A DNA stretch of 59,265 bases, the filler included, from Dirinaria sp. TL-2023a (Eukaryota), in assembly GCA_051941275.1 (NCBI GenBank). It is 3 parts of 3 records of this genome, joined end to end, with 100 filler letters (N's around TTAATTAATTAA, not from the genome) between each part and the next. Parts side by side here need not be neighbours in the genome. Positions count along the whole stretch, not along the records: positions 19,808 to 39,489 come from JAVEBF010000318.1; 2 more parts are not named here. One strand, 5' to 3'. Shown in pieces: positions 11,189 to 39,489 of the stretch. The number at the start of each line of letters is the position of its first letter. Position 1 is the first letter of the stretch. The notes below the pieces were generated by a model. That model worked only from the letters and a program-made list of their open reading frames with translations. It had not been told where the DNA came from and did not search any database. Both the position numbers and the translations under genes were made by a program.

Positions 11189-11353
11189 ATGGGTAAGCAT
11201 CCTCCATTCAACTCAGCCATCATGAAGTGCCGTGGCAGTACTGGCAGATTTTTATGATACATCTCCGCCAAAGGAGTTTTAAGAAGCCGTCAGTTCGTAC
11301 ATTACAAAGGGCAAGCCCAATGACTACCATGCCGCCAGCAGCATTCATCCACC

Positions 11354-13405: not shown

Positions 13406-14458
13406 AGGAAAAGGATGAAATTAGAGACGGGTGAGCAAGTGCCTGTGAGAATCTCTCGCACTTATCGTCGTGGTACTAAAATTGGACATTCAGATATATT
13501 AATTTGCCGGGTTTTTAACTTAGCTATGTGCCCCGATTGCAGCCTGGTGCCCTGGATTTCCCACCAGGACGTGATTTTTTTGCTGCACACAGCTGCGCTT
13601 CTCAAATGCTCTCTGGAGACTGTTAATCAAAGCACGAGGTGCCACTCAAGAACGATGGCATCAAGCCAAACCAAAACTCCGGCCTCGTGGATGGCCTAAT
13701 CGTATGGAGCCTTGATCACCACTGGACCCTAGCTATGTGTCACCAATCATGGGTTGAATGTAGACGTCGACGGTATCGCAGAAGCCTGCTTCCTCTGTGC
13801 TGCTATTGAGAGAAAACACACCATTAAGATCTCATCCGGAATTTTTTCGAATCCTAAAACACATCTAAAAATCCATGCAATGAGGATTCCGCAGGAAGAA
13901 GAATAATCCATCAATTATTTAAACCTTATCTTCGCCGCTACTACTTGTTTCGCCATTTGATATTTCAGCACGACAAAACAACAACCACGTTTCCAAAAAT
14001 TTAAGCTATTATTAGTTTGCGACTCTGGGGTAAAGGATGTTTCAACACCTTACGTCAAAGCCCCTTGCGGCTCTGCGCATATATGCGTCTACCATGGGTT
14101 TGCGACACTCATAATCGGAAGCCTCCGATTGTCCCTGCTCTACGATTCCGATGGCGAAGCAGCCAATTGAAAATGCTATTGGTCATAGCACTGACCACGC
14201 AAAAAGCCACCTTTGAGGCGGGTGCGTAACTTCGTAAGACACATTGGTAAACGGCCTAACACCGTCGCAGCGATATATCCGAGAAATTCGCAGGTATTCG
14301 CGCAGAATCTAATCTTAAAGGACGTATATAGCCTCTTGCTTGCGTCCAAACGGACAATTTAAACTTTCACATGACCATCACCACATGAGCTTCTCGAACC
14401 GCATCTAGTCCTTCTCACTTTGTTCTTGCTGTTATTCTTTGAAGAATTTTGGCCAACC

Positions 14459-18062: not shown

Positions 18063-19707
18063 TCGGTCAATGCTTGCGCTTTGTGGCCGATTTTGATTCC
18101 CGTGACGGCTATATTGGTTCACATCGTGAAAACTTATGAGTAAGTTAGGAAATATCGTTTTTCGAAATGGTGATGTATGTATTCGACGGCAACCAGCAAC
18201 CAGCGGGGTGGAGTTCTCGGCGGGCAATGGTTTATGCGATCTACCTTGATGTATCTACTGTAATTCTCGCTCCGTCGCGTTATGATACCCTTGTTGCAAG
18301 ATTCCCCAAGTACTTTAAATAATTTCGAATATATATGAAGATAGCCTTAAAAATGGCCATCGACAGAGAAGAAATATTTCGAATCTGGTCGTCTGTGTGT
18401 GGGTTATTTTGGGGTTCGGGCTACTTGGGAAGAGATTCTTCGTTGGTCTCACGACCTATAATTGTTCTTTAATAAATTTTGACCATGGGTGCTGATGAAC
18501 TGATGGGAAGATCGTGGGAAGGAGGGAAGAAGAATCTATGTGCGCATGCTTCTCGTCACTCATCTAGCCATACTGAGATGCGGATCTGATGAGGATCTTT
18601 TGTGCAGTAGCCGTTCACACCCTACCCTTGCAATGCAGATACTGGTATGCAATTACTGTAGTTATGACGACAATTCAGAATTGCGATCGTTGTCACGAGA
18701 TCTAGATGAATATCACGCATGCGTCACTAACGTAGATAGAATAACCCCACCAACGTCGATAAACTTTTGTCCTGATGTGATATTGAAGCATCCCTTTCTA
18801 TCCCCTTTTCGCAAAATTTTGATATTTGGGTTACGTGACCAATCACATTCCAGGAGCCGACTGAACCCAAAAAGGGCCGGTCTGCGGGCGCGGATGTCGA
18901 GGAATGGCCCGGCCATGCACGAATCAAAGCCTATCGCTTCTCCATCCCGCAATTTAATGCTTGCTAATGCTAGAACATATGAAAGACAATCCCAGCCGTG
19001 CGGTTTGCCTCAACGGCATCAACGGCGGCGCCCCCTGTCCCGAAACTCTCAAGCTGGAGCGAGTAATGCTCCGCAAATAATGGCGAGTACGGCGTATTCT
19101 AGGGGATAGGGAAGTTTTTTCTTTTTCTTTTTCTTTTTCAGGGGGTTCCAGCTTAGGAAACCGCCGCCGATGGTCTGGCCTGGGATCCTTCCATACAAAT
19201 GACCGGGGATCGTCATTAGGACGAAACAGTGATCGGCACTTCACGTGGCGATTAACGAAAGAATGGTTCGGAGTGCGAGGATCGCTTCCATCTCATCTTC
19301 TACTGCATTGATCAGCAGCAGCCACGAGTGAATTCCCTTCTATCGTTAGTCCCTTCACTGCGCGGGTATCTTGTTCGCTGAGAGCCTCGATTTGATACAT
19401 TGGTTTGCTCCCGCCGTGCATGGCGCCACTTGATGTCGTCTTGAACAAACTCGATGCAAGCCTTTGTCGTTCTCACGCTCCTCGAGTAAATATTAATAAT
19501 ACCTACTTACTTACACAGAGGGTATCGTTATTCGCCAAGTGCCACCACCTTCTTGTTCAGCTAATACTGATAATTGCGTAAACAAGACTTGTCAAAAAGT
19601 AAAACCGTAGCACAAGAGGTAGTGTCGGTAGTAGTGTGAGGAGACTTTCCTAGTCCGCAACAGTAGTACGTACGGAGTAGAGAATCTTCCCCCCTTCACC
19701 CTTGGCC

Positions 19708-19807
19708 NNNNNNNNNNNNNNNNNNNNNNNNNNNNNNNNNNNNNNNNNNNNTTAATTAATTAANNNNNNNNNNNNNNNNNNNNNNNNNNNNNNNNNNNNN
19801 NNNNNNN
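19708..19807. other. Artificial assembly gap/spacer
   Basis: Exactly 100 bp of N with central TTAATTAATTAA (stop codons in all six frames). Confidence 0.98.
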
Positions 19808-19989
19808 TATTTGAAGTGATGACATTATGTTTTGTACAACGACGCTATATGTATATCCATCCCCACCCAGTGGTTTTTGAAGAAAATATGGAACGCCTTA
19901 TTTCATTTTCCCCCATATGCAGGAAACAAAAAGAGTAGTTTTCCCCGACACCATAGTGTATGCAATGCATGCAAAAAAAAAAAAAAAGC

Positions 19990-20629
19990 TCATTCATAAT
20001 CATCCCGGTTCACCTGCCACGCCATCACCATCATCCACAGCAAAAACACCGTCCCCACGATCAACAGCGAGAACGCCGCCTTCCAATCATTGCACAGCCC
20101 CACCGTCTCCAAGTACGCCAGCGTCGCCTGGCTAGGCCCCGCCGACTTCCGGTACCGGCTGCAGTAGTAATTGACGCTGCCTTGGGGGCCATAGAGCTCT
20201 ATACTCGTCTCGATGAGGCCCGTGAGCCAGAGCACGAAGAGGATGAATGTCCCCAGGACGACGATGCCCGGGAGGAGTTGCCGTTGGTTGATGAGCACCA
20301 TGAGCACGGTGAGGAAGAGGAGCGAGAGGGATCCCACGGCGATCATGTACGGGAAGAGCCTGGGAAGGTTTGCCTCTCGTTAGCTTTCATCGTCATCTTC
20401 TTCTTCTACACTTTCTCTTTTTTTTGCTTTTTTTTTAGGAGAAATAAGAGGTGGAAACTCACCATGGCACACCCTGCCGTGTCGTCGCCTGCACTTCCAT
20501 GAAATACGCAAAAATCCCGAGTTCGGTCGCTGACGCGGCCGCCACCACAATCAGCCAGATGTTCAGCTGCGCTTCCGGCCAGTGGTATTTTCGCCGCCGC
20601 TCGACTACGCGCACGACTTCGGTTGCCAT
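19990..20629 (-). CDS. Conserved fungal multi-pass (about 4 TM, MARVEL-like) membrane protein; 2 exons
   Basis: ATG 20629 MATEVVRVVERRRKYHWPEAQLNIWLIVV..LGIFAYF; intron 20360-20462 joins GVPW/LFPYMI in frame; four hydrophobic segments and a Cys pair in the last loop. Confidence 0.8.
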
Positions 20630-21782
20630 TGTGGAGATCGAGGGCCCCGAAAGCTGTTATGAGGGCCTTCGGATGGGAGGGATAAGGACTTTGGCGGTTG
20701 GAGACTATAGCGCGAGTGTCATACACCGCGCTCGCCCTCTTGCTCCGGCCGCCGATGTGTCCGTCTTGATGAAAGAGTCTTAGAGAGGGCGTTGGTATCT
20801 TGCAATGCGCCCGTGACCGAGATGGCAGCTTTGTAGGTTCTCCAACGATAGTCTCACCAGTCTTTCCCTTTCTTCAAGCCACCGCTACGTGGCTTTTTTA
20901 TCGCGCGGTAGAGGTAGGGTAGGGTATCAATGCAGCGGGCTCCTGTTCGATGAAGTGGATGCGCGCGATTCGAGGAAATTTGGCGAGGTCCAACAAGCTC
21001 CAGCTTTCGGCCAAGACTTTCTTTGAACACTTGTGGAATATGTGCAATGTTGAAGAGGAATGCGGAGAAAACGAGTGACAGGATATGGGTTTGTGAAGAG
21101 AGCAGTCAATGGCTGCGTGACGCAGCGTTTTGCGACTGCTGCTGCCCGAACGATGATGCGGGAGAGGTTGGCTGGATAGTTGGGTGGCGGGGATTGGTCG
21201 ACAGGGTCTGCGGGCCGGAGAAGAACCAGCCATTCCTAATGTGGTAGAATGCCATGTCGAGCTAACTACTTTAGTTGGTCAACCTGAGTCCCTCCAATAT
21301 GGTTGGTTGTGATTGAAGGTACCTGATATCGTACAACTGCAACAACCCAGCTGTTTAGTTGCGTGGCATCTCGTTCTGGACCGAGCGGCTCATCATGTCG
21401 GTTTATGATAAAGGCCTGATTTTTAGTGGCGGTGGAGGCATCTTTAAGGTAATTTTCATGGAAACCCCGGGAAAACCCCGAACTTAAAGTCATTGGCGCG
21501 TTTGAGAGAGCCCCTAAACGATAGAGGGGCGCCAGTTAAAGTATCTGAAGATTTTCCTTCGACGCGTATCTTCACGTCCTCCGCGTCCTCCCCTCCACAA
21601 TTTATTGAGATGTAAGGAGCTCACTTGGTTGACTTCAAAAAAGTGATTCTTGGCAAAGGAAGGGTAAGTCAATATCATTCGCGATAATGGCATCATTGTT
21701 CAATTCACTCCAGACGAATCTATCAATTTCGTTCAATCTGACGCGTTCTTCAAAAGGGTGCCGATTAGAAGCCTGATCCATC

Positions 21783-23808
21783 ATGCGTCGCAAGAAGACA
21801 GCTAAAGCAAAGGACATCAATACCTCACTGGGCTTCTTGACAAAACTTCCACTAGAGATTCAATGTACGATCGGTAAAAATGTAAGCTCTCATCACCAAC
21901 TTCTTCTCAACCTAGGACCTCGGTATTCTATATCCAAGATGCTGACGATGATCTTCAGCTTTCTGCACGTTCTGATGTCAACAACCTTAATAGGACATGC
22001 AAATCGTTGCACGCCGCCACGCTTCCGAAATTATATGGCCACCTCGTTTTGCATATCCCAACTTCGAAATATCAGCTCGCAGCCATTGAGCAGCTTGTGG
22101 CTTTACCTTGCACTGGCCTCCAGTACACTTGGAAGCTTGATGTCCTTGCCGCTCATTGCCACGTCGACAGTGGCTTTTTCGCTAACGAGGATCACTCGGC
22201 AGAAACATGGTCAAAGCGGTCTGATCGGACGACGTCAGAGTCTGCCATTGCTGATACTTTTAACATACTTCTTCGTTTAATCATCTCGAAGATACCACGC
22301 GAATCATTGCAGCAGTTTTCGTATGTCAATGGTTGACTTCAGCCGTCCTTTTCTTCTACGTGCCGTCCATTCTGTAGTGTTACATGTTGGATCTCAACCT
22401 GACGTTCTTTGTGCAGATGGCGCCATATGTGTGACATTGATTTTTCAACCCTCGACCTCCTGTGGAAAGACCACCGCAGAAATCTCAGGAGCTTCGAAAT
22501 TAGCTCGCACTCGCTGAGTGCAAGTCTCGAAGCATGGTCCCACCTGCCTCCAAGCTCACTCCACAGAATCGGCGTTAACTCCGTTCGACCGGAAGCCATG
22601 CCCATAGCCAAGGATTCGATTTTATGGCCTATTGGAATCTCTTCTGAATCGTTGAAAGAACTCTCAATTGGTGATGAAGAGACTGTAAGAGACGAGTACG
22701 TTTACGGCTGCATTGAAGACTATACTGCTCCTGGCGGACGGCAACAAACGTTTACAAGTATGCTCGCGCGAGCTATGGCAAAAATTTGCGACCAAAGGAC
22801 CCGTGGCATTGTAAAGCCGTTGCAGTTGAACTCCGTGAGGCTTCTTGGTGTTGACCTCTCAGAAATCTACAGTCACGAGCCTAGACCTTTCTTCGATTTT
22901 AACATGCTGAAAAGTCTATCATTGGAATCCTGTTCCGGTCTAGAGAGGGTTTACCGGTACTGACTATGGAGCACCAGGTGAACTCGCTAGATAGGCTGGG
23001 GAACCTTCGGTCATTTACTATTCGAAGCGAGAGTTCGAATTTTAATTTGCCAGGACGCTTGCAAAGTTTCCTGTGCTCTTTCACTGGACTTAGTACACTC
23101 TTCGTCATGCTCGAGGGATCCTACTCGTACAGAATCGACTTGAAGACGGTCCTGGATGCCCATGGACAAACATTGCAAAAATTGATCTGGGATACCAAGT
23201 CGCAGCTCAGGAGTAATCCAGATCAGGATGTTTCATTTCACTCGCCTTGGCAACATCTAGCCCAGATCGGCGCTGCATGCCCAGATTTAGTGGAGCTGGG
23301 TGTAAGCCTTGATTGGGACGACATTGTCCCATTTCGAGACAGCGTATGTGATATTCAACATTATTGGCTCTATGCATGCCAACAAAAACGCGCTAATTCT
23401 ACCTAGATTACTGATTCCTTCGATCTCATGAAGCTCCGAATTTTGAACATCCGTAATATGCCGGTTGCAGACCGTGTAGACTCTTATACCGTTTCAGAGG
23501 CAATGCTGCAAGGCTTAGCCATTACCATCGTGAGACTGTACATGGGTCGTATCCCGCAAAAATCCAGCAGTCGGCCGTTGTTGAGGATAATTGCCCTTGG
23601 CTCTCTTAGCTACCGAGATCGATATCTTGGAGGTCACCCTTCCGACGACCTAGATCGTTTCTTCCAGCGAAGGAACTACCATGTCGACTATGTGGAAAAC
23701 TATCAGAAGAAGCCGGCGCCCTTGCTTACGCTGACCTCCAAGGGATGCGTATGCAACGACGAGTTTTCTGAGCAGACTTCCGTCCTGGATCCATATTGGC
23801 TCGCATAG
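21783..23808 (+). CDS. F-box-like / RNI-LRR-like protein with an internal frame break at about 22950-22965 (possible pseudogene or sequencing error)
   Basis: F-box-like LTKLPLEIQCTIGKN/LSARSDVNNLNRTCKSLHAATLPKLY after intron 21882-21958. Further introns 22321-22416 and 23344-23406. LRR-like segments LKSLSLESC, LRSFTI, LSTLFV, CPDLVELGV, LRILNIRNMP. TGA at 22961 interrupts the frame. Confidence 0.75.
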
Positions 23809-24538
23809 ATTGTTGAAAAATTTTTACTCCTCCTTGTTGGAGCCTGTTTCACAGATTATGCGTTGGGCCATCGTCACCCAGTTCGGCCAATACCCACCCA
23901 TTTCTACCTTGCACGGCCTGATCATATGCCCCGGCAGCGTGATTTTTCAGAGGTGTGCCAAGTCAACTGGGAGGAATGGCTCGATCGCCATAATTGGCAA
24001 TTTGCATCATCGGTTTCAACGAGGGACTGGTCTAGTCATCAAGACCCGTTGCTAATGTGGTAAACCCTTCAAGTATATCAACTTCACCATGAGAAGTTCA
24101 ACAGGGAAAATCAAGAACGACGGGAAAAAGCGATTGTCCCTTCTCAGTACTTGGTGAAGGAGTAAGCTTACACTTCTGACGTGGCATTGCATGGTATGGA
24201 GGGCTTTAAAGATTCAAACCAGCTCATTGCGACCTTGAGTACAAAGACCCGCAACTCAGCAAAGCCATCACGAAAAATACATCTCCCTGTTTCGAAGATT
24301 TCCTACTGTACAGCTCAATAGTCTGCAAACGTTTTGTAGATATTTAACACCACACAAAACGATCTGATAGCAATCTCACATCAAAGCAACCTTCTCCAGT
24401 AGCTCCTTTCTAATCTCGATCTTTTACAGTGGAATATCATTTCTTATCTCTCTCTACACCATACAGTACAGTACTTTATAGGCGGAACCAATTCGTTGGA
24501 AGTGGGCTATCTGAGATTTATCGTTTTGATGAAGGGAA

Positions 24539-24781
24539 TGCGGAAGGGCGACTGACGCCCTTTGTTCCTGGCTACCTTTTTAGCGCGGTCAATGCTGCTA
24601 GATAGTGTGAATTATTAAGTGGAAGTCGCCCGGGAGATCCACCTAAGATGAATACCCGCACGGGGTCAACTTGGCGCCTAGGGCGCAGCTGCGTAGCCCA
24701 AATGGCAACTACACTACTACAGTCACCTAGAACACGCAGTCTTGGTGTACTGGCCCTCAAGGTATGGCGTCGAGCTCCGTA
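24539..24781 (+). mobile_element. MITE family copy D (degenerate)
   Basis: Shares ordered blocks TAGCGCGGTCAATG, GGAAGTCGCC, CCACC(T/C)AAGAT, CAACTTG..CCTAGG, AGTCACCTAGA, CTTGG(T/C)GTAC and terminal ..CTCCGTA with the copies at 34.0-35.0 kb. Confidence 0.7.
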
Positions 24782-25399
24782 CCCTAGGAGAAGGCACTTG
24801 CCTATGATTAGGCCTCAGTACGGTTCAGTGATTGTGGGCAGGGTCGACTACTTCGAAGTGACTACCCGAGATTAGATGGATTTTAGCACTCGTACAGACT
24901 GCGCCTAACCATCATTGGGCCCTCCCACTAATAGTCAAGGGGTTGATTTTAGTACGGACTACGATACGTTTAGGGCGCACATGGCTCATCATAAGCTCAC
25001 CAATGTACCTTCACTTTGATTCGTTTAGGCGGGTGGGCATTATTACTACTTTACTGAAGAATGAGGGACCCTTGGAAGTTCTGGCAAACGTCAGCAACAC
25101 CATTTGGTGGTGATGTCAGCTGGAGGTCGCTTCTCAGCACATACTACTGGCGGCAGTTTCTAGCGCAGCTGCATTATGGTGACACGTTCAAGTACGGAGT
25201 GCAAAGTGCCTTGTGCACAGACCGCGCCACAGTACAGTGAGGAGTGAACTGTCCTGAGATAACCGCATGCATTGTATATGCACGGTGCCCAAAATTGAGG
25301 CATTGATGCCTTGATATGTCTAACCTCTCGCTTTACTTTGCTCTCTTTCAATTCTTGCCATCGAAGTCTCGCGTTTTCGTACGTTCTTACACTCCCTTC

Positions 25400-26230
25400 T
25401 GCCTCTTCATGCTCAGAGCAACAAGTCTCAGAATGCTACAATAGCGCTTTACTCGAGTAGTCCAACTCCTTACGAATATTCAAGGCGTTGACACATCTAT
25501 GAGAGAAGGGCTTTGAGACTGTCCTGTTCGATGAATCAGCTATGTGAAAATCTATGAAGGGTCTAGGTTAAGGTCAAGATTACCTCTCGATCCAGCAGCG
25601 TCACCTAGACGCACTGGACTGAGCATCCTGTAATGGCGCTTCTGGGCATGAAGGCTTCAAATATGGAGGCTCTGTCCAAAGTTTCTAAAGCGATAAACGA
25701 AACGTTCGTCAATCCAAGGTCTACCTATGTCCTGTTCAGTACCTTGCCAACCACAATTTCGACCCATAGCATCGTCGAGCTTAGCTCTTGATTGGCGCTT
25801 CTTTGATGTTGCTATGTGTTACCGTCCGACGATAGACGTTACGAGAGGTAAAGAGACGCAACTCTTATGGCCTCCACAAATTTCAGTCCTCAAATGTCGC
25901 GCCTGCTTTTCCAGGTTGCAGCCGTGACCCACACCGTGACTCTTATTGTCTTGATTCCTACTTCTCTAAACCTTGATATCCTTCTGACGCGTTCGGGTCG
26001 TGCGTGAGATCTCCGCCGACAGCATTAAAAGATTAGTCAAGGAATCGACATCTTGGGATCGATTTTGAGCGATTGCCAGCCTCGCAAGCTAATTCGGCGT
26101 GTTCGCATTCGAAAGCTTGATGCTCATTGACTCGGGCTCAACGAAGTGGCTTGTATCGGGGTGGTATACTGTGCGTGACTTCGATGTTAGCGCGTTTGGT
26201 CTCTGAAAGTCCCGAACAGCATCACAGCCT
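25400..26230 (-). pseudogene. Probable decayed inverted paralogue of the neighbouring F-box/LRR-like gene
   Basis: Minus strand has CCTAGACCCTTCATAGATTTTCACATAGCTG versus CCTAGACCTTTCTTCGATTTTAACATGCTG at 22880, plus weaker colinear patches (GL..T, RL.I, WK..R, IR.E). No intact ORF; boundaries approximate. Confidence 0.4.
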
Positions 26231-26882
26231 AACTCTGGCAGATTCATACTGACCAAGATTTTGCTGCCGACCCTCGATGCCTCCCACGGTTAATTAGACG
26301 ACAGATGTATGTCTCGGGGTCGGATTCTTGCCGCCGACTGAATGTTACTCGATTTACTTGAGAGCCTATCTCAAGCACCAAAGCACTAATGCACCATGCT
26401 GCCTCGTGGCTTAGTATCCAGATAATCGTAGCTCCACTTCAGAGCATGATCATCTAGACGCTGTTCATGGTAACCAGAAGTGGACAAATCGGAGCTTACA
26501 CTTCAATCTATGATTTCAAGCTTCCAACTAGGATACTGGTCGTGGGGTCGGCTGAAGATGGCTGTCCTTGGAGAGGAAGGCCCCGCTTCGGGCCGCTAAG
26601 GTGAAAGCAATTCCCGAAATACAGCGGCTTTTATCTAATCGTACCTTATGACGCCTTACCTACTCATGCGCAAGCTTCAGCCTTGTCGTGTAAGTATATC
26701 TCACTTTGGGTGAAGGCGAAGAGCCTCTACGTACTTCTTTTGCTGCCTGACACATGATGGACGAAGGTGCTTGTGTCTAAAGTTTCAACCCACCTGTTAT
26801 CTGGAACTTTTTCAGCTGCCTTCAACCCTGCGTAATCAACGGATGGTGGCATTCATGTTTCCCGGAGCACACTTTGCTCTCC

Positions 26883-28593
26883 ATGTCTACTAGTGGCTCG
26901 GGCACTACGTGGCTCACCCTGCACGACGAGAAAAAGCATCAGACAGAAGAGGCCTTCGGCCAAGGCTATAGGGTACCTGGAGATGTCAAGAGCGAAGAGA
27001 CCCTTCGTTCTGCGCTCGAGGCCCTCAGCAGGGAGAGGAGAGATCACAGATCTTCCCGATTGGATGCTAAGATACTACCGTCACTCGAGGCAATCGCAGA
27101 ATTAGCCAGAGCTGTCGATCAATCCATCATCGACCGGCAGCATTTGGCACCAGACGATACATTAGAGGGCCTCGTCTGGTGGATATCATTTGCATTGATA
27201 AAGGTGAGTGGCGCCGTCTCAAATATGCTGCATCGCTTACTGCGTTGTAGAGCGGATGCAGAGCTGGCGCTCAGCTCGTTCCTCTTGTGACATTGGTGAC
27301 TGAGCTCAACAAAAGTGTACCAAAATTCTCCACTGAGAGGGGTCATTTCCGTTTGCGGTTTCCGAGCGAGAAACGAGTTCAGAAGCCTCTACAAGATGTT
27401 TACAACTTGTTCATCGATTCGCATTTGTTCATATTGTCCTACCTGAGGAAGCAAGGCCTCAGTAAGTCGACCTTGGGCAACAGGCCGGAGATGATTGCAC
27501 ACGCTGACCTATTGCAGGCTCTCGGGGAGACCCTACAAAGGAGGAAGCTCTGAGAACGCACATCACTGATACAGCTAAACGGCTCCAGGAGGCAAGAGGT
27601 AGATACGATCTTATGGTAAATCAAGCCGCCGAAGACGAAGAGCGAGCGAAGGCCCACGTAGAGCAGCCGAGTCTGGATGCAGAGCGCAGCTTGCCAGATC
27701 ACCTACATCAAAACTCTACATCGAACCGGGAGGTTCAAGTGGGGTTCGTTTCAAAAAGATTCCTTGGACGTGGATCTTACGGTGAGGTCGACGAGGTTCG
27801 GGAATTGTCGACTGGTGCCTCATACGCCCGGAAGCACATCCATCTGGACGGCGATAGGTCTTCGGACGTAATCGAGAACGAAGTCAAGAATGAGGTCGCT
27901 ATCATGCAGAAACTCCGACATCTGCATATAGCAACAGTTTTGTTTTACGTGAAGGAAGAAAAAGCATACAGCATTTTTATGCTACCAGTTGCCGACTGTG
28001 ATCTTCAACGCTTCCTGACGCGTTGCACCGAGCAAGATTATGCTGATGCTCTAATCAAACAGATTTACCCTTGGTTCGGATGCTTGCTTGATGCGCTAGC
28101 ATATGCACACAAGCTGAGGATTAAACACCAAGACATCAAGCTTTCGAACATTCTTATCAAAAACAATCAGCCGTACCTTTGCGACTTCGGCCTTGCGAAG
28201 GATTTTGCAGAAACGAATACGAGCACTTCCCAGGGTCCCAAGCCAAAAGGCACAATGATCTACCGTGCGCCAGAAGTAGTACCTGGTAGTATTCGTGGCC
28301 GGAAGGCAGACGTATTTGCTTTAGGGTGCGTCTATTCAGAGATGTTAACTGTTACTCAAGGGAAGTCTTTGGAAGACTACCGCGATGCTCGTAAAGAAGC
28401 AGGCTCGACCGCATTCCGTGATTGCCTGCCGAGGGTGAAGATATGGTTACAATCGTTCGAAAGGAATAAGCTGAGCGATCTAATGGTGGACCAGATATTG
28501 AGCATGATCAGGAAAAATTCCGAGGAAAGGCATACCGCTGAGCAGGCTGTTAATTTTTTGAAGCGCGAACCTGCATTTTTTTGCGTCGAGTGA
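26883..28593 (+). CDS. Ser/Thr protein kinase fused to an N-terminal helical domain resembling fungal NACHT/NLR N-terminal domains; 3 exons
   Basis: Introns 27204-27250 and 27462-27517 join three ORF fragments in frame. Kinase motifs LGRGSYGEV, ARK, alphaC Glu (NE), HQDIKLSN, DFG, YRAPE, DVFALG. Confidence 0.88.
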
Positions 28594-28716
28594 GTACGGA
28601 TATCAGAGCATGAATATTGGACTAGCGGGAGGTCGTTCTTGGGGTCTGAGTCTGAGATTCAGGAGTTCGAAGGTGTCGCCATTGCGCTTGACGTTCAGGA
28701 GTTCTTGACCATTTCA

Positions 28717-29838
28717 CTACACAAGCTGCTGTGTTTCCTCGATGTCTTTAGCATACCGGGGAGCGTCTACTTCGTCAGCCCAGGGTATTTTGTGGAGGCA
28801 ACCCAGGTGCTCAATGACACGTGCTGCTGCTTTACATCCGTATCGGACCGCAGCTTCAATGTCCCATTCGCCTTTTTGTTTCTGCTCTATATAGCTCGCT
28901 GCGTAGGCGCCCACGAAGCTATCCCTATAATGATACCTGTATCAGTATTCACTAGTACACATACCTGGATGGCTGAGGGAGTGAATAAAATATTATGGAT
29001 AAGGGGTCACAGACCCTGCACCAGAAGTATCGAGTACCGTGCAATTCTTCTCAGCCTCCACATAGCTAGCCCCCCCTTCGTTGGAATAGTAGGCACCCTT
29101 TTCTCCCAGCGTGATTACAACATTGTTTACGCCTAGGTTGTGAAAGTACTCAGCGATTTGCGACCATCCATTCTCGTTTTCGCTGTCTACTGGCGAGCAG
29201 TCCGACAACAGCGATGCCTCGCTCTCGTTCATGATCAGATGTGATATCATCCGATACAAAGGAGTTAAGAGGAAGAATGCCGGGGAAGGTTTCATCATCA
29301 CCTCGATCTCTGCCCGATTTGCTGTCCGAAGGGCTTGCTCGACTGTGTCCCGTCGGATCTCAAGTTGCGAGATGAGTAAATCGGGCGCTACACCTCCTCC
29401 CAAGCTCTCCGGAGTCACGAATTCCGTCGACTCTAGAGCGTAGGCAGCTCCGGGATATTGCATGATTCGATTGGCTCCAGAGTCTTTCTCCAGGATGATG
29501 TTATTCACGGCAGTTGCTTGGCCCTCTATAACGCGGACGCCATCTACATTCACCCCACAGGATAGCAGGTTATCTTTCATTGGGCCCCCAAATTCATCTG
29601 CGCCGACCGCCCCGACGATGCGCACTCGGACGCCATTTTCATCATCGGCCTGCGGGAGGCCTTTGGGATTCGGGCGTGTAAGGCGGTAGCAGGCAACGGC
29701 CGCACTGGCACCTTTACCGCCAGGCTGCTCGGTGAAGCCAGACGCAACGACAGTCTCACCATCGTCCGGCAGCCGGTCTGTGATGGTAGCCAGGTCTCGC
29801 GTTATACCACCCATCACAGCAATAGTACATGGAGGCAT
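28717..29838 (-). CDS. PfkB-family ribokinase-like sugar kinase; 2 exons
   Basis: GGKGA, VGAVGADEFG, QLE, NESEA and ITLGEKGA motifs. Intron 28925-29014 restores the catalytic DTSGAG/DSFVGA. Confidence 0.9.
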
Positions 29839-31423
29839 TTCCAAGGAGCAGCGACAATTGCAGGACGATGCTGTCTGAGTGGATGGACCACAAGTGACGG
29901 TAAGCTCGAAAGATCAATTCCGAGGCAGCATTCAACGGAATTACAGAGCTTCGCTTTGAGTGAGGGGCAGCCGGCTACGGCCATGATTGGCTTTACAAAG
30001 CAACATCGAAAATGGTGCGCCTACGCTCGACCAATACAAGGAAGGCTGTAAGTGGGCCGCCCGGGCCTGAGATAAGTATCAATCGACATAGCAAGGATCC
30101 TCGGGCTGAAACATGGTTAAGGCACTACGGCACGTCTCGAGCGGTCCCTAATACTTTAGGGGGGTTTATCTGCTAGTAGATATTCCCGTCTTTCGGCATT
30201 CGGGTCGTTAGACTGCAGTCTAGCATGATCTCACCGAAAGCTTCATGACACCCAGCATGCCAAACGGGGCGTAATGATGCAGCAGCTACACAAAGTTTAT
30301 ATTCCTATCGTCCTACTCAACTTCAATTACCGTTGGAGCTTCACAAGAACATCAAAGCGAATGGTCAATCTTCTTCAACTATTGGGAACAAATTACAATT
30401 ATGCACGCTCTTCAGTAGCCACTCAAGAGCCCATGGTGTCTCCACACAGGCATTGATTTATCGTCAAGCTTGTACGGGCCGCTTCCTCATATCGCATCCG
30501 GCAATTCTGCAAGTCTGCAGTGTAGCCTCGTCTCGAACCTGATACCAGAGCATTTGACAGTCAGCCTTGCTCTGAATCATGAATCACTGAGCTGCTAAGG
30601 TATTCTAACCAAATACCGGGGGCTCTCATTGCTGCTGCCTTCCTGCTCTCTCACCTCTCCCTTCCTCCATGCGCCTGCACTCATTGCGTCGCGTTAGTGA
30701 TTCGTCAGGCCGAAAGTGGCCGCAATTTCTCCTACCGTATAAGAGGAAATATATTTTGTCATTGATTGCATAATCTGTTGCTTCAATGCTATCCATGGGA
30801 GGGGCTGGTGGTGGCTGTGCAGTTGGCATGGCTTCGATTTGGTCCGTAACTTGATTTGCGCGACGAAGCCTTTGGGCAGCGCTGGGTGCTAATTACTTGA
30901 TTGAAGTGGGACAATTACCTTAAGCACTGGGAGGTCCAAGGACTTATACCTCGCTTCACTGCAGCCTTGCAGTGGGCTGTACCAGGGCCACGAATGGCGT
31001 GAGATACGGCAGCCGGCATTTACGTGCTTTACAGCACATGCAGACCAGCCTTTCGAGGCCGCATTGAATTAGAAGCTAGAAACAGAAGCTACTTGATGTG
31101 TGGGGCGGGGCGCGATGAAGTCTAGGCTATTTCACAGACTTAGACCGCCAAAGATCCCATACGCATCATGGTGGGACATCTTGGCGATTGCTTTCAGATT
31201 GGTCACATTTGATCCTGCTTTTGATGCCACATGCACAATGATTTACAACACTAATATTATATAACGCTTAAGTGATTCAAGCCTTCCACGCCTATACGGG
31301 GAAGGTGAACAATCATACGTGAAGCGAATTTGCTCTACGTGCTCGGACTCAGTGAGATCTGAGCGATCGAAAGAGCCGCCGAACGCAACCATCTGCAGAA
31401 TAAGGGACACACTCATACTCAAA

Positions 31424-33662
31424 ATGGGCGATCCTCTTTCCATAGTCACGGGGGTCCTTGCAGTAGCCGGAGCAGCAGCTACAACTTGCGAAGGTCTTTA
31501 CAAAATATTGAGACGATCACTTGTAGCGCCGAAGGACCTCGAGCATCATCTTTCTGCAGTACAGGCTTTGCAGTCAACTTTGACTGCTATTGCGGCCCTT
31601 GAAGGAAACGATGCTCCAACCACAACGATCATCACACCACAGTTTAAGACCTGTATGCAGTCATGCATGCTGGATCTACAAGCGATGGAGAGGCTCTTAA
31701 AGTCGTTTCAGATCCAGATTGACGAGGGAAGAGCACGCAGAACTTGGGCCAAGATGCGGTGGTCTTCTGTGGACTATCAACAGAAACTGAAGAGTTACCT
31801 GAATAGGATCGAGTCTTACCACAGGACTTTTTCCTTGGATCTGTTGTTGTTCAATATGTGAGTCTGGAATTGGGATTCGAAAACCAGACCTCGAACGCAT
31901 TGAATAACCGATGAGCTATTAGTCATCTAGGTCTTCATTCCAAAGCTGAAGGTCGAACGCATCAGAACAATTGTCCTTGTGCGTCGGATCTCATTCCAGC
32001 CCCAGCTTGCAGACCTCTAGTTCATGCATACTCTTCAAGTAGCCGTCACGGAGATGATTCTGGGCATGTTTCAGTTCAGAGCAGGTTTCTGACGTACTTT
32101 GAAAGTGACGGTTTGCACCTTCTCCTGTGTCTTGGACCCATCACCGCAGCGAGGGTGCAGGACAACCACACTCTCACCTCCATCACCCCGAAGACTAGCC
32201 ATGGATATGGTGTTTGTTTGGTAACATCATCACCCCTTCACAGACTATTTAGGCTGGAGCTAGCGATGTTCATAAAGACGAATCGGAAAGCACCGAGCAT
32301 AAGGTTTTCCATTCACTGGAATCTGTTCTGGCCGCGCACAGTATCTTGGGAAGCGGAGATTATCAATCTCGTCCTGTGCGGGGACGTCGACGCTGTAAAG
32401 AAAGGATTTTCTACGAGACGTTCAACGCCCTTTGATCAGCTTCCAGACGGCGTAACAATTTTACATGTGTGTTTAGTAGTGTTACTTGGGACTAGCACCA
32501 ACTGACAATGCATTAGCTTGCTGCTTCTAACGGTCACTTTGAATTGGTCAAATTTCTTCTTCGAGAAGGCTCCAGGCCGAATGCTGTGGCCAATTTCGGA
32601 GAGTGAGCGTGCCCTTTCCCAAACTGCGTTTGCTTGTCTCTATTGAACGAGATGAGCAGAACCCCGCTTCATTCAGCCATCGCACTGTCCAAGAATTACG
32701 ATGTTGCCAGACTCCTCCTGGAAAATGGGGCAGATCTGCAGAACCGTAATGTCGAGGGGAAGACACCTTTGCACACGTTCTCGAGCCGTGTCTCGGTGCA
32801 GGTGTTGCGCTGTCATGGATTCCTATTCGACTTTTCGACCTTCGATCGCCGCGGCATGAGTGTACTCCATTATATGGCCTGGTCCAGCAAGACTTCCACG
32901 GATACGTTCAGAGATTATCACAAGCTCAGTAATTTGGATCTGAGGACGGTTGATGCGGAGGGCAGGTCGATGCTCCATTTCGCTGCTCAGAGAGGCAACG
33001 TGCCCGTTATTGAATACATCATCAGTGCCGCTAAGCATTTCAACATAGATCATACCGATTGCAAAGGCAGGACGGCAGTACACTACAGCATTGAAAACAA
33101 GCGCGCCTGTGATACCCTGAAAATACTAGTCTCACACGGAGCTAACATTTGGGTTAAAGACTACAGTGGGCGATCCGTACTGCATCATGCGGCCAGGTTT
33201 GGGAATCTGCCTGCCGTAAAGGCATTATTGACGCACGGGATGACAAACGAATTACGCGCAACAGATAGCTCGGGGATGACCCCTTTGATGATCTCATCTT
33301 ACCATAATGCTTATGCTGTGGTGATGTTCCTTCTGGAGATAGAGGGTTGCCCAAATTTTGAAAAGGAGCAGATAGGGCCAGGTGCGGTTGAGTGTGGCAG
33401 TATGGCTGCCCCATACTCAGATTTCGCGTCTGGAACCTCCACGCTAGTCCCTCAAGGAGTGAAAAATCGTATTCCGATGACATATCGACAATCTCAGGAT
33501 TCGGACTATTGGGAGTGGAAGAATCTATCGCCGATGTCTCGACGTTGCCGGAACCGGCTGAGCAACCACAGTACCTGTTGGAGCGCTATCAAGTTTCTTG
33601 CCATAGCGGGCACTGTGTCGGTCGTGGTTGTGCTATGGTTCAGATCTTTGATCGCGTTCTAG
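31424..33662 (+). CDS. HeLo-like (STAND N-terminal) domain + ankyrin repeats + C-terminal hydrophobic anchor; 4 exons
   Basis: MGDPLSIVTGVLAVAG..APKDL..RTWAKMRW N-terminus. Introns 31858-31922, 32467-32516 and 32603-32659 are all in frame. About 8-9 ankyrin repeats (GVTILH, GETPLH, GKTPLH, GMSVLH, GRSMLH, GRTAVH, GRSVLH, GMTPL); terminal FLAIAGTVSVVVVLWF. Confidence 0.85.
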
Positions 33663-34013
33663 TTCCACTCGCAGATTGCGCAGTTCTTAAATAAGGACGT
33701 GCAGATTAGTTCAAAATTAAGGTAGTATATCAAGTTACTGACTTATTCTGTGGTTTACGGTCCACACTTACCTTCGTGTGTGATTCCTCTGTGATCAGGA
33801 GCAGAGTACGTCAAATCTTGACAGTTGCAAACCTGAGTCACTGATGCTTGCTATATCATGTAGGGAATCGTCATCACGATTAGATGGGAGCACACAGCCA
33901 AGTTCGTCGCCTATGCGATCAGTGCCAAAACGGTACAATATGATACTTGTAGGCAGGACCAACTGCTTCGAAATGATCGCTCGACATTATCGTTTGAATG
34001 ACTGGGCTTGTAA

Positions 34014-34240
34014 TACGGAGAACGAGGAACAACGCCTTTATGTAAGTCCTAGGCTAGCGCGGTCAATGCCCACTAGTGTGATCAATTGAAAGTTGGCGCC
34101 CCCCCGGGGCGGGAGATGACCCAAGCTACCTTAACTTGCCTCCTAGGCTCGACGTGCATTGGGGTAGCGAGGACTTTAAATTTAAGCGTCAAACTCACTT
34201 CACTTAAAGCGCACCTGGCTTATGCTTCGTCGGTGGGCAT
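34014..34240 (+). mobile_element. MITE family copy A (degenerate, right end uncertain)
   Basis: Starts TACGGAG; contains AAGTCCTAGGCTAGCGCGGTCAATGCCCACTAGTGTGATCAATTGAAAGT and AACTTGCCTCCTAGG matching copies B and C. Confidence 0.6.
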
Positions 34241-34460
34241 TATCGGAGACCGACGACATAAGTCCTGGCTAGCGCCATGTACGCCAAGGATGTGTCGTCT
34301 AGGTGACTACCTATTTGCCCTTTAATGAGCACAAATGCCTCCTAGGTAGCAAGTTGGTATGTCCGGGCGATAATCTTGGGTGGTCTCTCAGGCGACTTCC
34401 AGTTGACCATACTAGTGACATTGATCACGTTAGCCAGAACTTATGGTCTCGTCCTCCGTA
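34241..34460 (-). mobile_element. MITE family copy B (220 bp, about 36-bp TIRs, TA ends)
   Basis: Left end TATCGGAGACCGACGACATAAGTCCTGGCTAGCG; reverse complement of the right end TACGGAGGACGAGACCATAAGTTCTGGCTAACG. The body is an inverted copy of 34801-35016. Confidence 0.8.
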
Positions 34461-34800
34461 CGTACTCACTGGAGGTCGTCACACCGCTCGGTAGCAATGG
34501 CAGATGGAGGTCGCTAACGCCTATCCCGAGAATGTGGGCCACCTGGATGCCTCGACGCTTGATTGCGCAGGATGAATATGAGTACCGCGTTTCTGACTCA
34601 GAGCGGATGTGTAGACTGAGCAAACTCTAGGCAATCTGGACCTTGACATAGGTGATCGATAAGTGGCACTATGCTTACTGTTTATTAAGAGTCGTCCATA
34701 CTCACGCAGTCAAATTACAGCACTTCGAAACAATTCCATTACAGACTCAACAACAGACATCCTCTCATCACGATCGAGGAGCGACCTGTTAATTTACATG

Positions 34801-35016
34801 TATGGAGGACGACGTCATTAGTCGTGGCTAGCGCGATCAATGCCACTAATATGTTCAACTGAAAGTCGCTTGGGGGACAACCTAAACATCATCCTGAACT
34901 CGCCAACTTGCTACCAAGGGAACAGCTGCTCTCCGCAAAAGGCTGACTGCATTCAGCTGGACGAATACTCTTGGCGTACATGACGCTAGCCAGGACTTTT
35001 GGCGTCGTCCTGCGTA
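34801..35016 (+). mobile_element. MITE family copy C (216 bp, about 37-bp TIRs, TA ends)
   Basis: Left end TATGGAGGACGACGTCATTAGTCGTGGCTAGCGCGAT; reverse complement of the right end TACGCAGGACGACGCCAAAAGTCCTGGCTAGCGTCAT. No credible coding capacity. Confidence 0.8.
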
Positions 35017-35274
35017 CGGTGAACCGATCGAGCATGAGGCTCCAAATCTCCACCTGTTATGCGATCCAACCAGACCTAATCGTTCTAGCGTGCACAAGAG
35101 CCAGCTGAAGAATTTGTCAGCGAAAACCACAAATGATCTGGGCGCTGTCGGAGATGAAACCAGGCCCCAAGGCTACGGGTATGGAAGCTGAGATGGTAAT
35201 CATTTGCGGAGAAATAGAACTCTCTTTCCAAAAATTTCTCTCTCGCTCCCTTTTTCTACGATCTGTATGGCATA

Positions 35275-36801
35275 ATGGCAATTGCCAGAGACCAAGCGTA
35301 CAGCTCATTGGAAGTTATTCCGCAACAATTCACGCCTTACACGAGTCAAAAAGAAAAATTCGTAACTGCGGATTTAGAAAAGGAGGCTGTTCCGGATGAT
35401 GGCAAGCAGGTTTCTTCCAAGCAGGGCGAAGAGGTCACTCCGGAGAACGGCAAACAGTGTGCACTGAACAGTGATGGGACTGAAAAGATCATAAAGGGAG
35501 ACCTCGATACGCACGAAAACAGCAGCAACCATTTCCCAAGACACCGATCGTGGAAAACCAAGCGGCTACTATTGATTGGAGCTGTGTTTCTGATAGTCAT
35601 TTTGGCAGCAGTGCTCGGCGGAGTGTTGGGAACGCGACATGGAACACGGCATAAGAGTTCTTCGACAGCATCACCAGAGGTCCCATCGAATACGTCAAAC
35701 ACTTCTTCCGCGGTGCCATCCCAGCGTAACATCGCCGCCTTGTCCTTCGCATTGAACTCCGTGAACAACACGCGCCTTTACTTCCAGGACGATGTCGGCC
35801 AGATAATGGAGGCCGGGAATTCTGATACAAACACCACATGGAGCGTGAGGGGAACTGGCATCAATGGCAAGAATGGATCTACCATTGCTGCAGCAGTTTC
35901 ACGCCCAGGTTTTCCTCTGGTAACCTACATGTAGTCGGCATCTATCCATCCGTGCTGATATGTCTCAAGGCTATCAGTGTATTTTACCTGAACGGTAGTG
36001 ACGTCATCCACGACGTCAGCTACACACCCTCGACGGGCTGGACTCCGGGCAGGCTCGCAGATCAGGGGTACACTGCAATGCCTAATGCGAGCTTGTCGGC
36101 CATGTATAACCAATGCAGGCTGTGTGCTAACACCACGATCATTGCTTTTCAAGACAAGAACGGGTTCGTTCAGATCGGCAATCTCACCTCACTTGGCTGG
36201 AATTTGGTGCAATTAGGTCCAGGCCTTGCCCCGCAAATAGGAACCGCACTTGCACTGCAGCCATTTTATCGCAGCGGATTGGAGGATCAGATCAACCTCT
36301 ACTATCAGAAGTCTAACCTTAATATGAGCTTGGCAACCTGGCAACTAGCCGTACCGGGTATTTGTGGTTTGCCGTCATGACGCTTGTTCACAGTTTGCTG
36401 ACTCTCGAACCGTAGTTGACGGCTGGAGACTTTCCGCGCAAATCTATCATGCTATTCCATCCGGGTCACCCATAGCCGCCGCTTCCTCCTATTCCAATGT
36501 CTCCACCGGCTTCGAGACCTGGATTGAGGTCTTGTCACTCTCAGACAGAGGCATCGAAGTCAACACATGGTCGGGAGCCATAAACGCCTGGGCGCAACAA
36601 TATGTACATCCCTCAGTGATGGTGAACTCGACGAACATCAAGGGGGCCTTTGAAGATGTGGCAGTTACTGCCACGGGAAACGCATTCGGTGTACTCAAGC
36701 AACAAGGCCATGCGGATACTATCCAACATTGGCTAGTCGAGGATGACACAGTCAATTGGAACTTGCTCGGAACGGTCGATCTAGGTGGTGTGTGGGGATG
36801 A
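35275..36801 (+). CDS. Type II membrane-anchored fungal fucose-specific-lectin-like beta-propeller protein; 3 exons
   Basis: Cytosolic N-tail, basic patch, then TM LLLIGAVFLIVILAAVLGGVLG and a Ser/Thr stalk. Repeated blades TRLYFQD..G.I..W, GSTIAA, ISVFYLN, IAFQDKNG, GTALAL, INLYYQ, GSPIAA. Introns 35920-35969 and 36358-36415. Confidence 0.8.
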
Positions 36802-37298
36802 GCTGCACCTGAAGGTGCTGAGAGCTCTGACGCTGGGTAAACTCTAATTTCATCAGGCACAGGTATACGACGCGAGAGTCACGCTTTATTAAGCCTCGGG
36901 AATTTCCACAAAGCGAAAGCACGATGCTTGGATATAGCTCGACATGAAGAAAAAGCCGTATATACGTTGATGCCGAAGATCAGCTACTCTTCGCTGATGC
37001 AGGCCACATCTAGACATGACGCACGTGTTCTGAGTCTAAAAGTTCACTCCAGAAATGAGCGCCACATAAGCTTGCTAATTGATCGAATTCACCAATCACG
37101 TGGGGATATTTTATCTTCTGGTGGGTACTAACACGTCTCCTGAAGGCTATAGCCAAGATAACTCCGTTCTGAGTAAGTTACAGCAGGCCCCGATTGCAAT
37201 GCCTCCGCGCAGAGCATACATGAAAGAAACTTGAGCACCCCTTCGTAAGTGAGCTTTCATACTGCTCAACTTGTAACATCTATAGCAAGTATCTGCTT

Positions 37299-38546
37299 TC
37301 ACTCCAACTGCTTCATGACAAATGGTACGTAAGCACCCGTAATACTCACATCTCTCTCCGGGTTGTATTTCTCGAGGCTGTCTAGGGGTCCATATTTTTC
37401 ACAAAGATAAAGCATATCATTATACGCACTGCAGAGCCTCGTTTAGCAGTTTGTCTTACTTTTGACAGGGGATCCTCACATTTGTCTCGAAGCACTTCCT
37501 GGATGTCCCGCAGAGTCATTCAAATACGGATGGATGCTGTAAAGCCGATTGCGGTCGTCCCATTCTTCCACAGGCTCCGATGGCTCGATATGGCGCTGAT
37601 AAAGTCGCATATAAATGGGTGAATTGAAGTAGAACGCCCAGGAGCACCTCCAAGTTCCGAATTCCATTTCATTATGGGCATATGTGGACCCAGGATCGAA
37701 GACGACAGTGTCACCCGTTTCCATGTCGATCCCAACATTTCGTTCCCACAAATCGCCATGTATCAGTGCCGGGGTTATATCCCGGCCATCAGACTGCAGA
37801 GCGCCCAAGAGCCTCGGTATGACCACATCGATAAGTTGCTTGCAAGCGGCGTCGAATTCTACCCAAGGTCCATTGGTCTCATTGTCATATTTGATTACAT
37901 CTTTAAGTTGGTGGGTGAAGGATTCCGCCCAACTCTTCTCCCAGGTTACTGTACGTTCCATTATGCCACATGTGGTCGGAACAGGGAATCCAAACATCCC
38001 ATTTGGCGAGGTTCCGCTGCGATGAAGCTCTGCTATCTGAGATACAAAGTGCAGTGGTTCTGGAGCTGTGGAGAAATCCATGTCATGGAAGTCTCCTAGG
38101 AAGAAGTATGATTGGGACTCGCCATTATGATACTCTTCCCATGCTGCTGGTTTGGGCACCAATCCTGGTACCAGAGCATCGATAGCAGATGCAGAATAAA
38201 ATTCGCCCTCGGCCAAAGCTCGTGCACCCTGCCCAGTCGCACACTGTGTGGTATCAATATTTTATTAACAAGCATTGACTCAACCGGGCGAATGTCGATT
38301 TACCTTCATAAAATATCTCTTGGGACTTCCGTTTGGTAGTCTGACCAAGACTTTCGCAGTCTTCGTCCAGGTAGACACACCATAAGACTCGGCTGAGATA
38401 ACCTTCGTCCCGCTTGGCATGGCTTGCGAGGTTCGTGTTAGTTTTCCGTGGATTTATTATCTGCGGGGATCCATACCCTCAACAACGACCTTGTGGATAG
38501 GGAAGTCTCCCTCGATCCCCAACTCCCAGTCAGACGAATTTGACAT
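37299..38546 (-). CDS. Fructosamine/ribulosamine 3-kinase family protein; 4 exons
   Basis: Introns 38423-38476, 38244-38303 and 37429-37479. Motifs RYFMK, AEGEF, PNGMFGFPVPTTCG, PALIHGDLWERN, VVFDP..YAHNEMEFG, WDDRNRLY. Confidence 0.9.
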
Positions 38547-39489
38547 GCTTTGGTGTTGGAATGAGTTTCTGCCGCAATAAGCACTGTCACACAAAGAGTA
38601 AGTATGTATATAGAGGCGTATTGGTACACGTGCTTAGAGAAAGTCCCTCTCTGAATCAGGTGGAATCGAGTGTATGAAGAGGATCTGCGGGCCGAGGTTT
38701 GCCCATTCCTTCCTCCCATCATACACTCGAGCTTCATCCTACTCTATCGCTACCTTCATCGAGTTTTGCTCCGTGATGCCAGACTCCTGGTTCTCCTGCG
38801 AAGGAAGAAGTAATAATAGCACTGGTAGGACACAACAAAGGCATTCAATACACTAAAACATAATATTCTGTTATCGGATGAGATGCGCTACACCATTGAA
38901 CTCATCAAATACACGGATGTCTATGAGTAGCTTCCCTTTAGAGTGTAGAGAAATTTGCAAAACCCAGGTCGGTTATAATTCTATTTTTTGTCTGGTTTAG
39001 ATACATTTAATCTACTCGTACTGTGTAAAGCGAATTACGCACACTATTACGGAAATATGTATCCTGAGCGAGACGTTCCTGGAGGATCCTCAAAGTGTAT
39101 AAATGTAAGAGGAGGAGGATAACCTAGGTTTCGCAGGAAGTGACGTCTTTGGGCTCAGTGTCCAGAGTAACAAACGAGAGATGAGTACTATGCCTCTCTC
39201 CTCACCTCTTTCTCTTTCAGATCCCTGATACATAAGAGTTACTAAGCGGACTTTCCTAGGTGGTTTACGATCAAGAAACCTATAGAGGACTGCGTCTGAG
39301 TTTGAAACTGGTGATGGTGATAGCATCGATAAATTAGAAATTTATAATGGCTGTAGTTGACGTACGGAGAATTTCAGCCTGCTTGCCAGTGGAATGAGGC
39401 CGGAGGTTTTAGAATCGGTTTGGTTTTCGAAGTCTTATAATTAGCGTTTTAGGCTGGAATCAAATTGTATGCAAGTATAGATCATGAAG

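Follow-up and report, generated by a model that had tools for sequence, protein, structure and literature searches.

What does a protein kinase do when it carries, ahead of its catalytic domain, a helical domain of the kind that heads fungal NOD-like receptors (NLRs; NOD, nucleotide-binding oligomerisation domain)? The question is raised by a three-exon gene at positions 26883 to 28593 of a 59,265-nucleotide (nt) stretch of DNA (the window) from Dirinaria sp. TL-2023a (GCA_051941275.1). The window consists of three parts joined by 100-N filler, of which positions 19,808 to 39,489 come from JAVEBF010000318.1; all coordinates given here count along the whole joined window, in which parts lying side by side are not necessarily neighbours in the genome. 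The DNA is fungal and nuclear, its introns are short and of the GT..AG type, and the closest proteins to the gene product come from lichen-forming ascomycetes. An earlier note, made from the DNA alone, had seen here a kinase with an NLR-type helical N-terminal domain and an MLKL-like architecture. The description "DUF7708-like domain plus active kinase" is supported by the analysis reported below; as to function, we tentatively prefer, with a probability of roughly 0.45, that the kinase is the output of the protein and the helical domain a docking or regulatory module.

Gene structure and transcription

The gene lies on the plus strand, and its spliced coding sequence of 1608 nt encodes 535 amino acids (aa) and is followed by TGA at 28591–28593; reading in frame from the preceding stop, the first ATG is the start codon at 26883. 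RNA evidence came from contigs of the RNA libraries of one lichen sample (four runs from one study; contigs of runs X1, X2 and X3 are referred to below), and the depth of RNA is that of contigs only. The features of the gene are:

26883 to 27203, plus strand: exon 1, 107 codons, encoding the N-terminal part of the helical domain with the invariant W10 and the LVWW helix
27204 to 27250, plus strand: intron 1, 47 nt, GTGAGT..TAG, phase 0, absent from the X2 and X3 RNA contigs and kept in one X1 contig
27251 to 27461, plus strand: exon 2, 70 codons plus 1 nt, encoding the second half of the helical domain with the motifs LNKSVPKF and RFP..RVQKPLQDVY..FID
27462 to 27517, plus strand: intron 2, 56 nt, GTAAGT..CAG, phase 1, with a CTGAC branch-like site, absent from the X1, X2 and X3 RNA contigs
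27518 to 28593, plus strand: exon 3, encoding a connecting helix (residues ~187–225), a low-confidence linker (226–250) and the protein kinase domain, and ending with the TGA at 28591–28593
26883 to 27525, introns included, plus strand: DUF7708/Goodbye-like helical domain (residues 1 to ~180), from an AlphaFold2 model, profile matches, hhalign and ESM Atlas
27745 to 28563, plus strand: protein kinase domain (Pkinase, E 3.3e-42), with K283 at 27832–27834, HQD at 28126–28134, DFG at 28183–28191 and APE at 28267–28275
28141 to 28143, plus strand: codon CTT (Leu386) of the catalytic loop HQDIKLSN; the residue is Pro in all 23 aligned members

The RNA contigs are mostly ~95–99% identical to the window, which indicates that their source is a close relative, a different strain from that of the window. 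In the RNA of this relative both introns have been removed: for intron 1 the joint runs from 27200 to 27253 with five replaced letters, which amounts to the removal of 52 − 5 = 47 nt (X2, X3), and for intron 2 from 27461 to 27520 with two replaced letters, that is, 58 − 2 = 56 nt (X1, X2, X3). All three exons are joined within a single contig of 1018 nt (X2 record 4). Intron 1 is unspliced in one contig of 198 nt (X1 record 2; window 27069–27264), which a retained intron, pre-mRNA or carried-over DNA could explain. Of the differences between the window and the RNA, 30 of the 40 best supported fall on third codon positions (a further 47 differences lie beyond these 40), a bias that reflects purifying selection on this frame. 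The gene is thus transcribed and spliced in a close relative.

Comparison of proteins leads to the same exon structure. Both junctions are colinear and free of gaps in 12 full-length homologues of 518–544 aa, one of them 91% identical; the named ones come from Lasallia, Lobaria, Endocarpon, Bacidia, Xylographa and metagenome-assembled genomes (MAGs) of Teloschistales. Among the metagenome loci described below, most of those with the N-terminal domain show a break of the open reading frame (ORF) after exon 1 at the same profile position (~107–110), which is consistent with an old intron. The junctions 27203/27251 and 27461/27518 drawn in the earlier note therefore hold, both in the relative's RNA and along the homologues, and the peptides it had quoted (LVWWISFALIK/SG.., LVTLVTELNKSVPKF and VQKPLQDVYNLFID) are present in the translated exons exactly as given. 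Its estimate that splicing adds about 210 aa upstream of the kinase ORF was roughly right; ~178 aa precede the in-frame part of that ORF and ~250 aa precede the kinase domain.

The N-terminal helical domain

Pfam recognises the kinase only: exons 1 and 2 of the window matched no family at E ≤ 1. A profile of the helical domain, made from 12 N-terminal domains and the two window exons, was searched against 1.84 billion representative proteins and found 162 matches at E ≤ 1e-3, 97 of them at E ≤ 1e-10. Many of these are exon-sized fragments of ~110 aa or 70–100 aa, because intron-containing genes have been called as plain ORFs. When 23 longer matches were scanned with Pfam, Pkinase followed the domain in 17, two were receptors with NB-ARC and DUF7779, one carried DUF7708 and Goodbye, and three matched no family. 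It is the non-kinase proteins which point to the identity of the domain. P0258 (1013 aa, from a Chrysothrix MAG; profile E 2.9e-5) is an NB-ARC-DUF7779 receptor with TPR repeats and a clear DUF7708 match (5.8e-16, 59.1 bits); P0235 (710 aa, from a Kuettlingeria MAG; profile E 2.1e-7) is of the same receptor type, with NACHT_N/DUF7708 below threshold; and P0208 (275 aa; profile E 2.7e-12) matches DUF7708 at 3e-21 (76.2 bits against a cut-off of 25) as well as Goodbye. In the kinase-family members scanned, only Pkinase-type families follow the N-terminal domain, and neither a NACHT/NB-ARC nucleoside triphosphatase (NTPase) nor C-terminal repeats were found.

Direct alignment of the profile with hhalign gave 97.7% against P0208 over 162 columns and 94.1% against P0258 over 142 columns; the LVW helix, the turn with ..mPrF.. 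and the helix with Q..L..iY..D are among the aligned columns. The pattern that the earlier note had read as DUF7708-like (LVW helix, L..LP.F, L..VY..I) has its counterpart in these columns. The neighbours listed in the ESM Atlas are nearly all DUF7708/Goodbye/NACHT_N clusters; the best scored 0.84 with 200 of 256 shared features, which is below the 0.9 mark and a lead only. A word-based search with residues 1–250 of P0004 returned orthologues and fragments only. Taken together, the profile comparisons identify the helical domain as a divergent, unannotated branch of the Goodbye-like/DUF7708 superfamily. DUF7708/Goodbye-like domains are the commonest kind of N-terminal "effector" domain in fungal NLR receptors.

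The domain is predicted to be wholly helical. An AlphaFold2 model of residues 1–244 of the 91%-identical homologue, made from a 14-row alignment, reached a predicted local distance difference test score (pLDDT) of 85.5 and a predicted template modelling score (pTM) of 0.83, with seven helices at 10–25, 38–51, 57–81, 94–111, 116–128, 148–175 and, the long one, 187–226. The structural similarity for which the earlier note had proposed a Foldseek comparison did not appear; there were no matches to the Protein Data Bank (PDB) at E ≤ 0.001, the libraries searched being without Goodbye-like models, and re-examination of the top 989 chains had the same outcome, with no MLKL match above noise. The peak hydropathy over 19 residues within residues 1–260 is 1.19 and the N-terminus is polar; no membrane-type helix is therefore evident.

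The kinase domain

The Pkinase match (PF00069) scores 145.1 bits against a cut-off of 31.7. As the earlier note had read from the sequence, the catalytic Lys (K283), the Glu of helix alphaC (E303), HQD (in HQDIKLSN, 381–388), DFG (400–402) and APE (428–430) are all found, next to the glycine-rich GRGSYG (261–266), and the alignment of 23 family members bears them out, with no variation at G261, G263, K283 and E303, at H, D, K, P and N in the catalytic loop, or in DFG and PE. Four of the 23 members have Arg just before the catalytic Asp and the other 19 have Q, K, N, E or Y there; the family is thus largely non-RD (lacking the Arg-Asp pair), as had been claimed for the window kinase with its HQD at 381–383. 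The protein is predicted to be a cytosolic kinase of the Ser/Thr type, non-RD and probably catalytically competent. When solved structures were searched by sequence with the kinase domain, only generic CMGC kinases were found (CDK2, 4e-20, covering N-lobe and catalytic core), and no named subfamily.

One residue of the catalytic loop stands out. Position 386 is Leu (CTT) in the window and Pro in all 23 aligned members; the relative's RNA contigs have C at 28142, which makes the codon CCT for Pro, and Leu also occupies this position in P0201 of Cladosporium fusiforme. Leu386 may reflect polymorphism or error, or it may mark a weakened allele. A model of the full-length protein had a pLDDT of 80.3 and a pTM of 0.53; the linker of ~25 residues between the two domains (226–250) stayed below a pLDDT of 50.

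Distribution and conservation

The kinase family is found in at least five classes of Pezizomycotina with named members: Lecanoromycetes, Eurotiomycetes (Endocarpon, Fonsecaea, Cladophialophora, Aspergillus terricola, Pyrenula), Dothideomycetes (Friedmanniomyces, Cladosporium), Sordariomycetes (Seiridium) and Orbiliomycetes (Dactylellina). Bacidia gigantensis and Friedmanniomyces simplex have two members each. Identity to orthologues is 43–62% over the N-terminal domain versus 66–76% over the kinase exon; both halves are conserved, the helical head less than the kinase.

A search for longer proteins returned no close relatives of more than 940 aa, which is weak evidence. One gene model, P0201 from Cladosporium fusiforme (1434 aa), runs from NACHT/NPHP3_N through ankyrin repeats into the N-terminal domain and kinase. 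It was set aside as a true NACHT-ankyrin-N-domain-kinase fusion, as it has an internal Met together with the family's usual N-terminal motif; the internal Met indicates that two neighbouring genes have probably been merged, in which case this fungus would have an NLR immediately upstream of its kinase gene. Other entries deviate as well: in P0124 (763 aa), P0142 (710 aa) and many entries of ~110 or 70–100 aa, the gene has been split at introns or exon 1 has run into upstream sequence. Because lichen and fungal metagenome contigs are called ORF by ORF, the family's entries in databases are mostly fragments.

The proteins are already in public databases, uncharacterised, labelled as hypothetical protein or plain kinase, and with the helical head unannotated. 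The open-access papers and preprints searched contained no description of a non-NLR family combining a Goodbye-like/DUF7708 domain with a kinase, and no open-access paper on DUF7708 was found; the table of PMC9815663 that lists double-domain architectures (Table A) and the structure files of that paper may be relevant to the claim of novelty. The combination of helical head and kinase, across filamentous ascomycetes, is so far unnamed and unstudied.

Neighbouring genes

Two genes downstream of the kinase gene matter for its interpretation:

28717 to 29913 (ORF pieces 28717–28941 and 28993–29913), minus strand: ribokinase-like PfkB gene, convergent, its stop ~124 nt from the kinase stop
31427 to 33662, plus strand: gene for a protein with a HeLo-like N-terminal domain (PF17111), ankyrin repeats and a hydrophobic C-terminal tail; a functional link is not implied

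Retrieval by kinase-family alignment yielded 80 metagenome loci, in 11 of which hmmsearch placed N-domain exons ahead of the kinase. With tblastn, all nine N-domain loci with downstream flank (L001, L003, L004, L005, L006, L010, L011, L015, L021) showed a PfkB homologue directly after the kinase and on the other strand, as did L007 and L012; L002 and L016 are without PfkB, their sequence ending at the kinase. The pair is kept down to a kinase identity of ~32–48%. Exon-3 RNA contigs (X1 record 3, X3 record 8) reach several hundred bases beyond 28700, well within PfkB; this probably means that the 3′ ends of the pair overlap or that the assembly fused transcripts of both.

Beyond PfkB, a protein with a HeLo cell-death domain (PF14479) is encoded in L005 (2.7e-23; 12423–14108, plus strand) and in L012 (1.3e-27; 11205–13154, plus strand), in the same position and orientation as the HeLo-like gene of the window. 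In the kinase-like part of this protein HRD is replaced by HKG or HKA, which makes these proteins MLKL-like HeLo-pseudokinases; in L001 there is a homologue of the pseudokinase part alone. The scan covered 121 ORFs of at least 90 aa over ~5.5 kb in nine loci with a threshold of E ≤ 1e-4, and no HeLo-type ORF was found beyond PfkB in seven of the nine (L001, L003, L004, L010, L011, L015, L021). PF17111, whose current title is PigL_N, is given as Helo_like_N in PMC9815663. The HeLo-type and PfkB neighbours are a lead, their counts being without a baseline for chance adjacency.

On the other side of the kinase gene (window 18500–26800) no ORF has a Pfam match, and no NLR was found there. These ~8 kb hold short ORFs only, including a run on the plus strand at 21777–24055 in changing frames, which may represent a gene of several exons that went unrecognised, a gene in decay or simply intergenic sequence. 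Housekeeping genes occupy 637–7035, 10295–11188, 37476–38261 and 42453–55554 of the window (RabGAP-TBC, DENN, BCD1, fructosamine kinase, nucleoprotein TPR/MLP1, TFIIE beta, a methyltransferase, a class II Phe-tRNA synthetase-like protein and Uds1). The region is core genome, with no obvious accessory island.

What the protein may do

As the kinase has kept its catalytic residues and is more strongly conserved than the head, phosphotransfer is taken to be the output and the head to be a docking or autoregulatory module. In such a protein the helical head would bring the kinase to proteins bearing the same kind of domain, for instance the DUF7708-NB-ARC-TPR receptors of lichen fungi, or, alternatively, would keep the kinase inactive until it is released; the kinase domain would then act by phosphotransfer, the two parts being connected by a long helix and a flexible linker. 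The same head on NB-ARC-TPR receptors, together with the published architecture PKINASE-GOODBYE-LIKE-NACHT, suggests recruitment of like with like. The logic would be that of the kinases with death domains or caspase recruitment domains (CARD), IRAK and RIPK2, and unlike that of MLKL. Activity of the kinase, docking by the head and any connection with immunity or cell death are inferred.

Several findings weigh against this proposal. At E ≤ 10, neither seven homologues nor the 23 members gave a Pfam match to DUF7708, Goodbye, NACHT_N, HeLo or Helo_like_N; as these models are not reached, the kinship of the domain to DUF7708/Goodbye rests on profile searches via a few bridging sequences. Because of the low-confidence linker, the placement of the helical and kinase domains relative to each other is undefined, and Leu386 in place of the otherwise invariant Pro of the catalytic loop might weaken activity. 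Further, the gene has the look of a conserved orthologue, mostly present in single copy, and in this differs from the typical fast-evolving NLR-associated genes, and its constant neighbour is a ribokinase-like gene and not an NLR.

The last two points lend themselves to a different explanation, namely that the protein is a housekeeping or metabolic regulatory kinase with no role in immunity, its head being autoregulatory or substrate-binding and related to NLR N-termini by chance of ancestry only, and that it works with the ribokinase-like enzyme, for example in sensing ribose or nucleosides. The convergent PfkB gene in the window and at every N-domain locus with downstream flank, the conservation of mostly single-copy orthologues across classes, and ordinary CMGC kinases such as CDK2 as the nearest solved kinases would all fit. 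However, a tail-to-tail pair has no common promoter, so that the linkage may be mere retained synteny; the sole non-kinase relatives of the N-terminal domain that were found are NLR-type proteins, and genes of the HeLo type recur beside the kinase-PfkB pair. We consider a metabolic role rather improbable, but the most probable of the alternatives to the preferred reading.

The recurrence of HeLo-type genes has itself been considered as a clue. The kinase might activate a neighbouring executioner in a pair resembling RIPK3 and MLKL, by phosphorylating the HeLo-pseudokinase or the HeLo-like ankyrin protein two genes away. HeLo-pseudokinases do lie just past PfkB in L005 and L012, the window has its PF17111 gene at that position, and L001 retains a homologue of the pseudokinase part; yet a HeLo-type gene occurs beyond PfkB in only two of nine loci plus the window, and the window gene differs in architecture, with ankyrin repeats instead of a pseudokinase. 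Such a partnership seems very unlikely to us. That the helical domain itself kills, by permeabilising membranes after oligomerisation, with the kinase domain as its switch, would make the protein an executioner like animal and plant MLKL and like the fungal HELL-kinase proteins to which a 2025 review refers. This idea, too, we consider unlikely, if less remote than the pairing just described; it is unsupported, since the kinase is intact, no membrane-type helix is evident and no structural match to MLKL was obtained.

Docking and phosphorylation could also be parts of one pathway. In its widest form the preferred reading, output by the kinase and docking by the head, would make the family the signalling kinase of a fungal necroptosis-like pathway, recruited homotypically to receptors and then phosphorylating executioners of the HeLo type, for which the HeLo-pseudokinases beside the kinase in L005 and L012 and the HeLo-like ankyrin protein of the window would be the candidate targets. 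This extension is highly speculative and improbable as it stands; were it true, the Goodbye-like domain, which is abundant but functionally uncharted, would gain a role as a homotypic adaptor.

In any case, an NLR-type domain outside any receptor and on an intact kinase offers a tractable protein for asking whether such a domain docks, regulates or kills, and brings a candidate active kinase into fungal cell-death signalling, a field in which executioners and receptors have so far dominated the descriptions. For annotation, the locus means that Pfam misses the first ~180 residues of a conserved kinase family and that ORF-based calls on lichen metagenomes break the gene into exon-sized fragments.

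Comparison with known systems

The closest parallels of the helical domain are DUF7708, Goodbye and NACHT_N. All are all-helical and of ~150–200 residues, and motif columns are common to them (LVW.., ..ECG/ECA.., mPrF, P...Q..L..iY...D). Unlike these, the domain of the window gene stays below every Pfam model and precedes a protein kinase instead of a NACHT/NB-ARC NTPase and repeats; in addition, the kinase heads form a conserved orthologue family and not an expanded, variable one.

With MLKL and the fungal HeLo/HELL-(pseudo)kinases the protein shares the order of parts, an N-terminal helical bundle, a connecting helix and a kinase fold, and to this extent the "MLKL-like architecture" of the earlier note stands. 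Two further marks of MLKL, the pseudokinase and a four-helix bundle (4HB) or HeLo domain recognisable by sequence, are absent: the kinase is catalytically intact by its motifs, there is no membrane-type helix to be seen, and a disordered linker of ~25 residues follows the connecting helix; the N-terminal domain had no significant match to 4HB/HeLo in sequence or structure, and no HeLo, PF17111 or SesA was found in the 23 members at E ≤ 10. According to PMC9815663, the core of Goodbye-like domains is a distant relative of the MLKL/HeLo four-helix bundle, with extra N-terminal helices and no proven killing activity. Among the papers searched, PMC12881547 comes nearest to the present combination, in reporting that some fungal HELL domains sit on kinase or pseudokinase proteins.

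The published NLRs of the architecture PKINASE-GOODBYE-LIKE-NACHT, which fill at least five rows of the S1 Table of PMC9815663, are also single polypeptides of Pezizomycotina with both a kinase and a Goodbye-like domain. Their kinase stands at the front and a NACHT follows, while here the helical domain is first and a NOD is missing; the two were compared by architecture only.

The proposed logic has counterparts in IRAK/Pelle and RIPK2. These proteins fuse a death-fold domain of the receptors or adaptors of their pathways to an active kinase, several of them being non-RD. The kinase described here is alike in joining a receptor-type helical domain to a putatively active kinase, which suggests recruitment by like domains, an interaction that is hypothetical in the fungal case; it differs in that Pfam finds no Death or CARD match and in that the domain order of RIPK2 is reversed.

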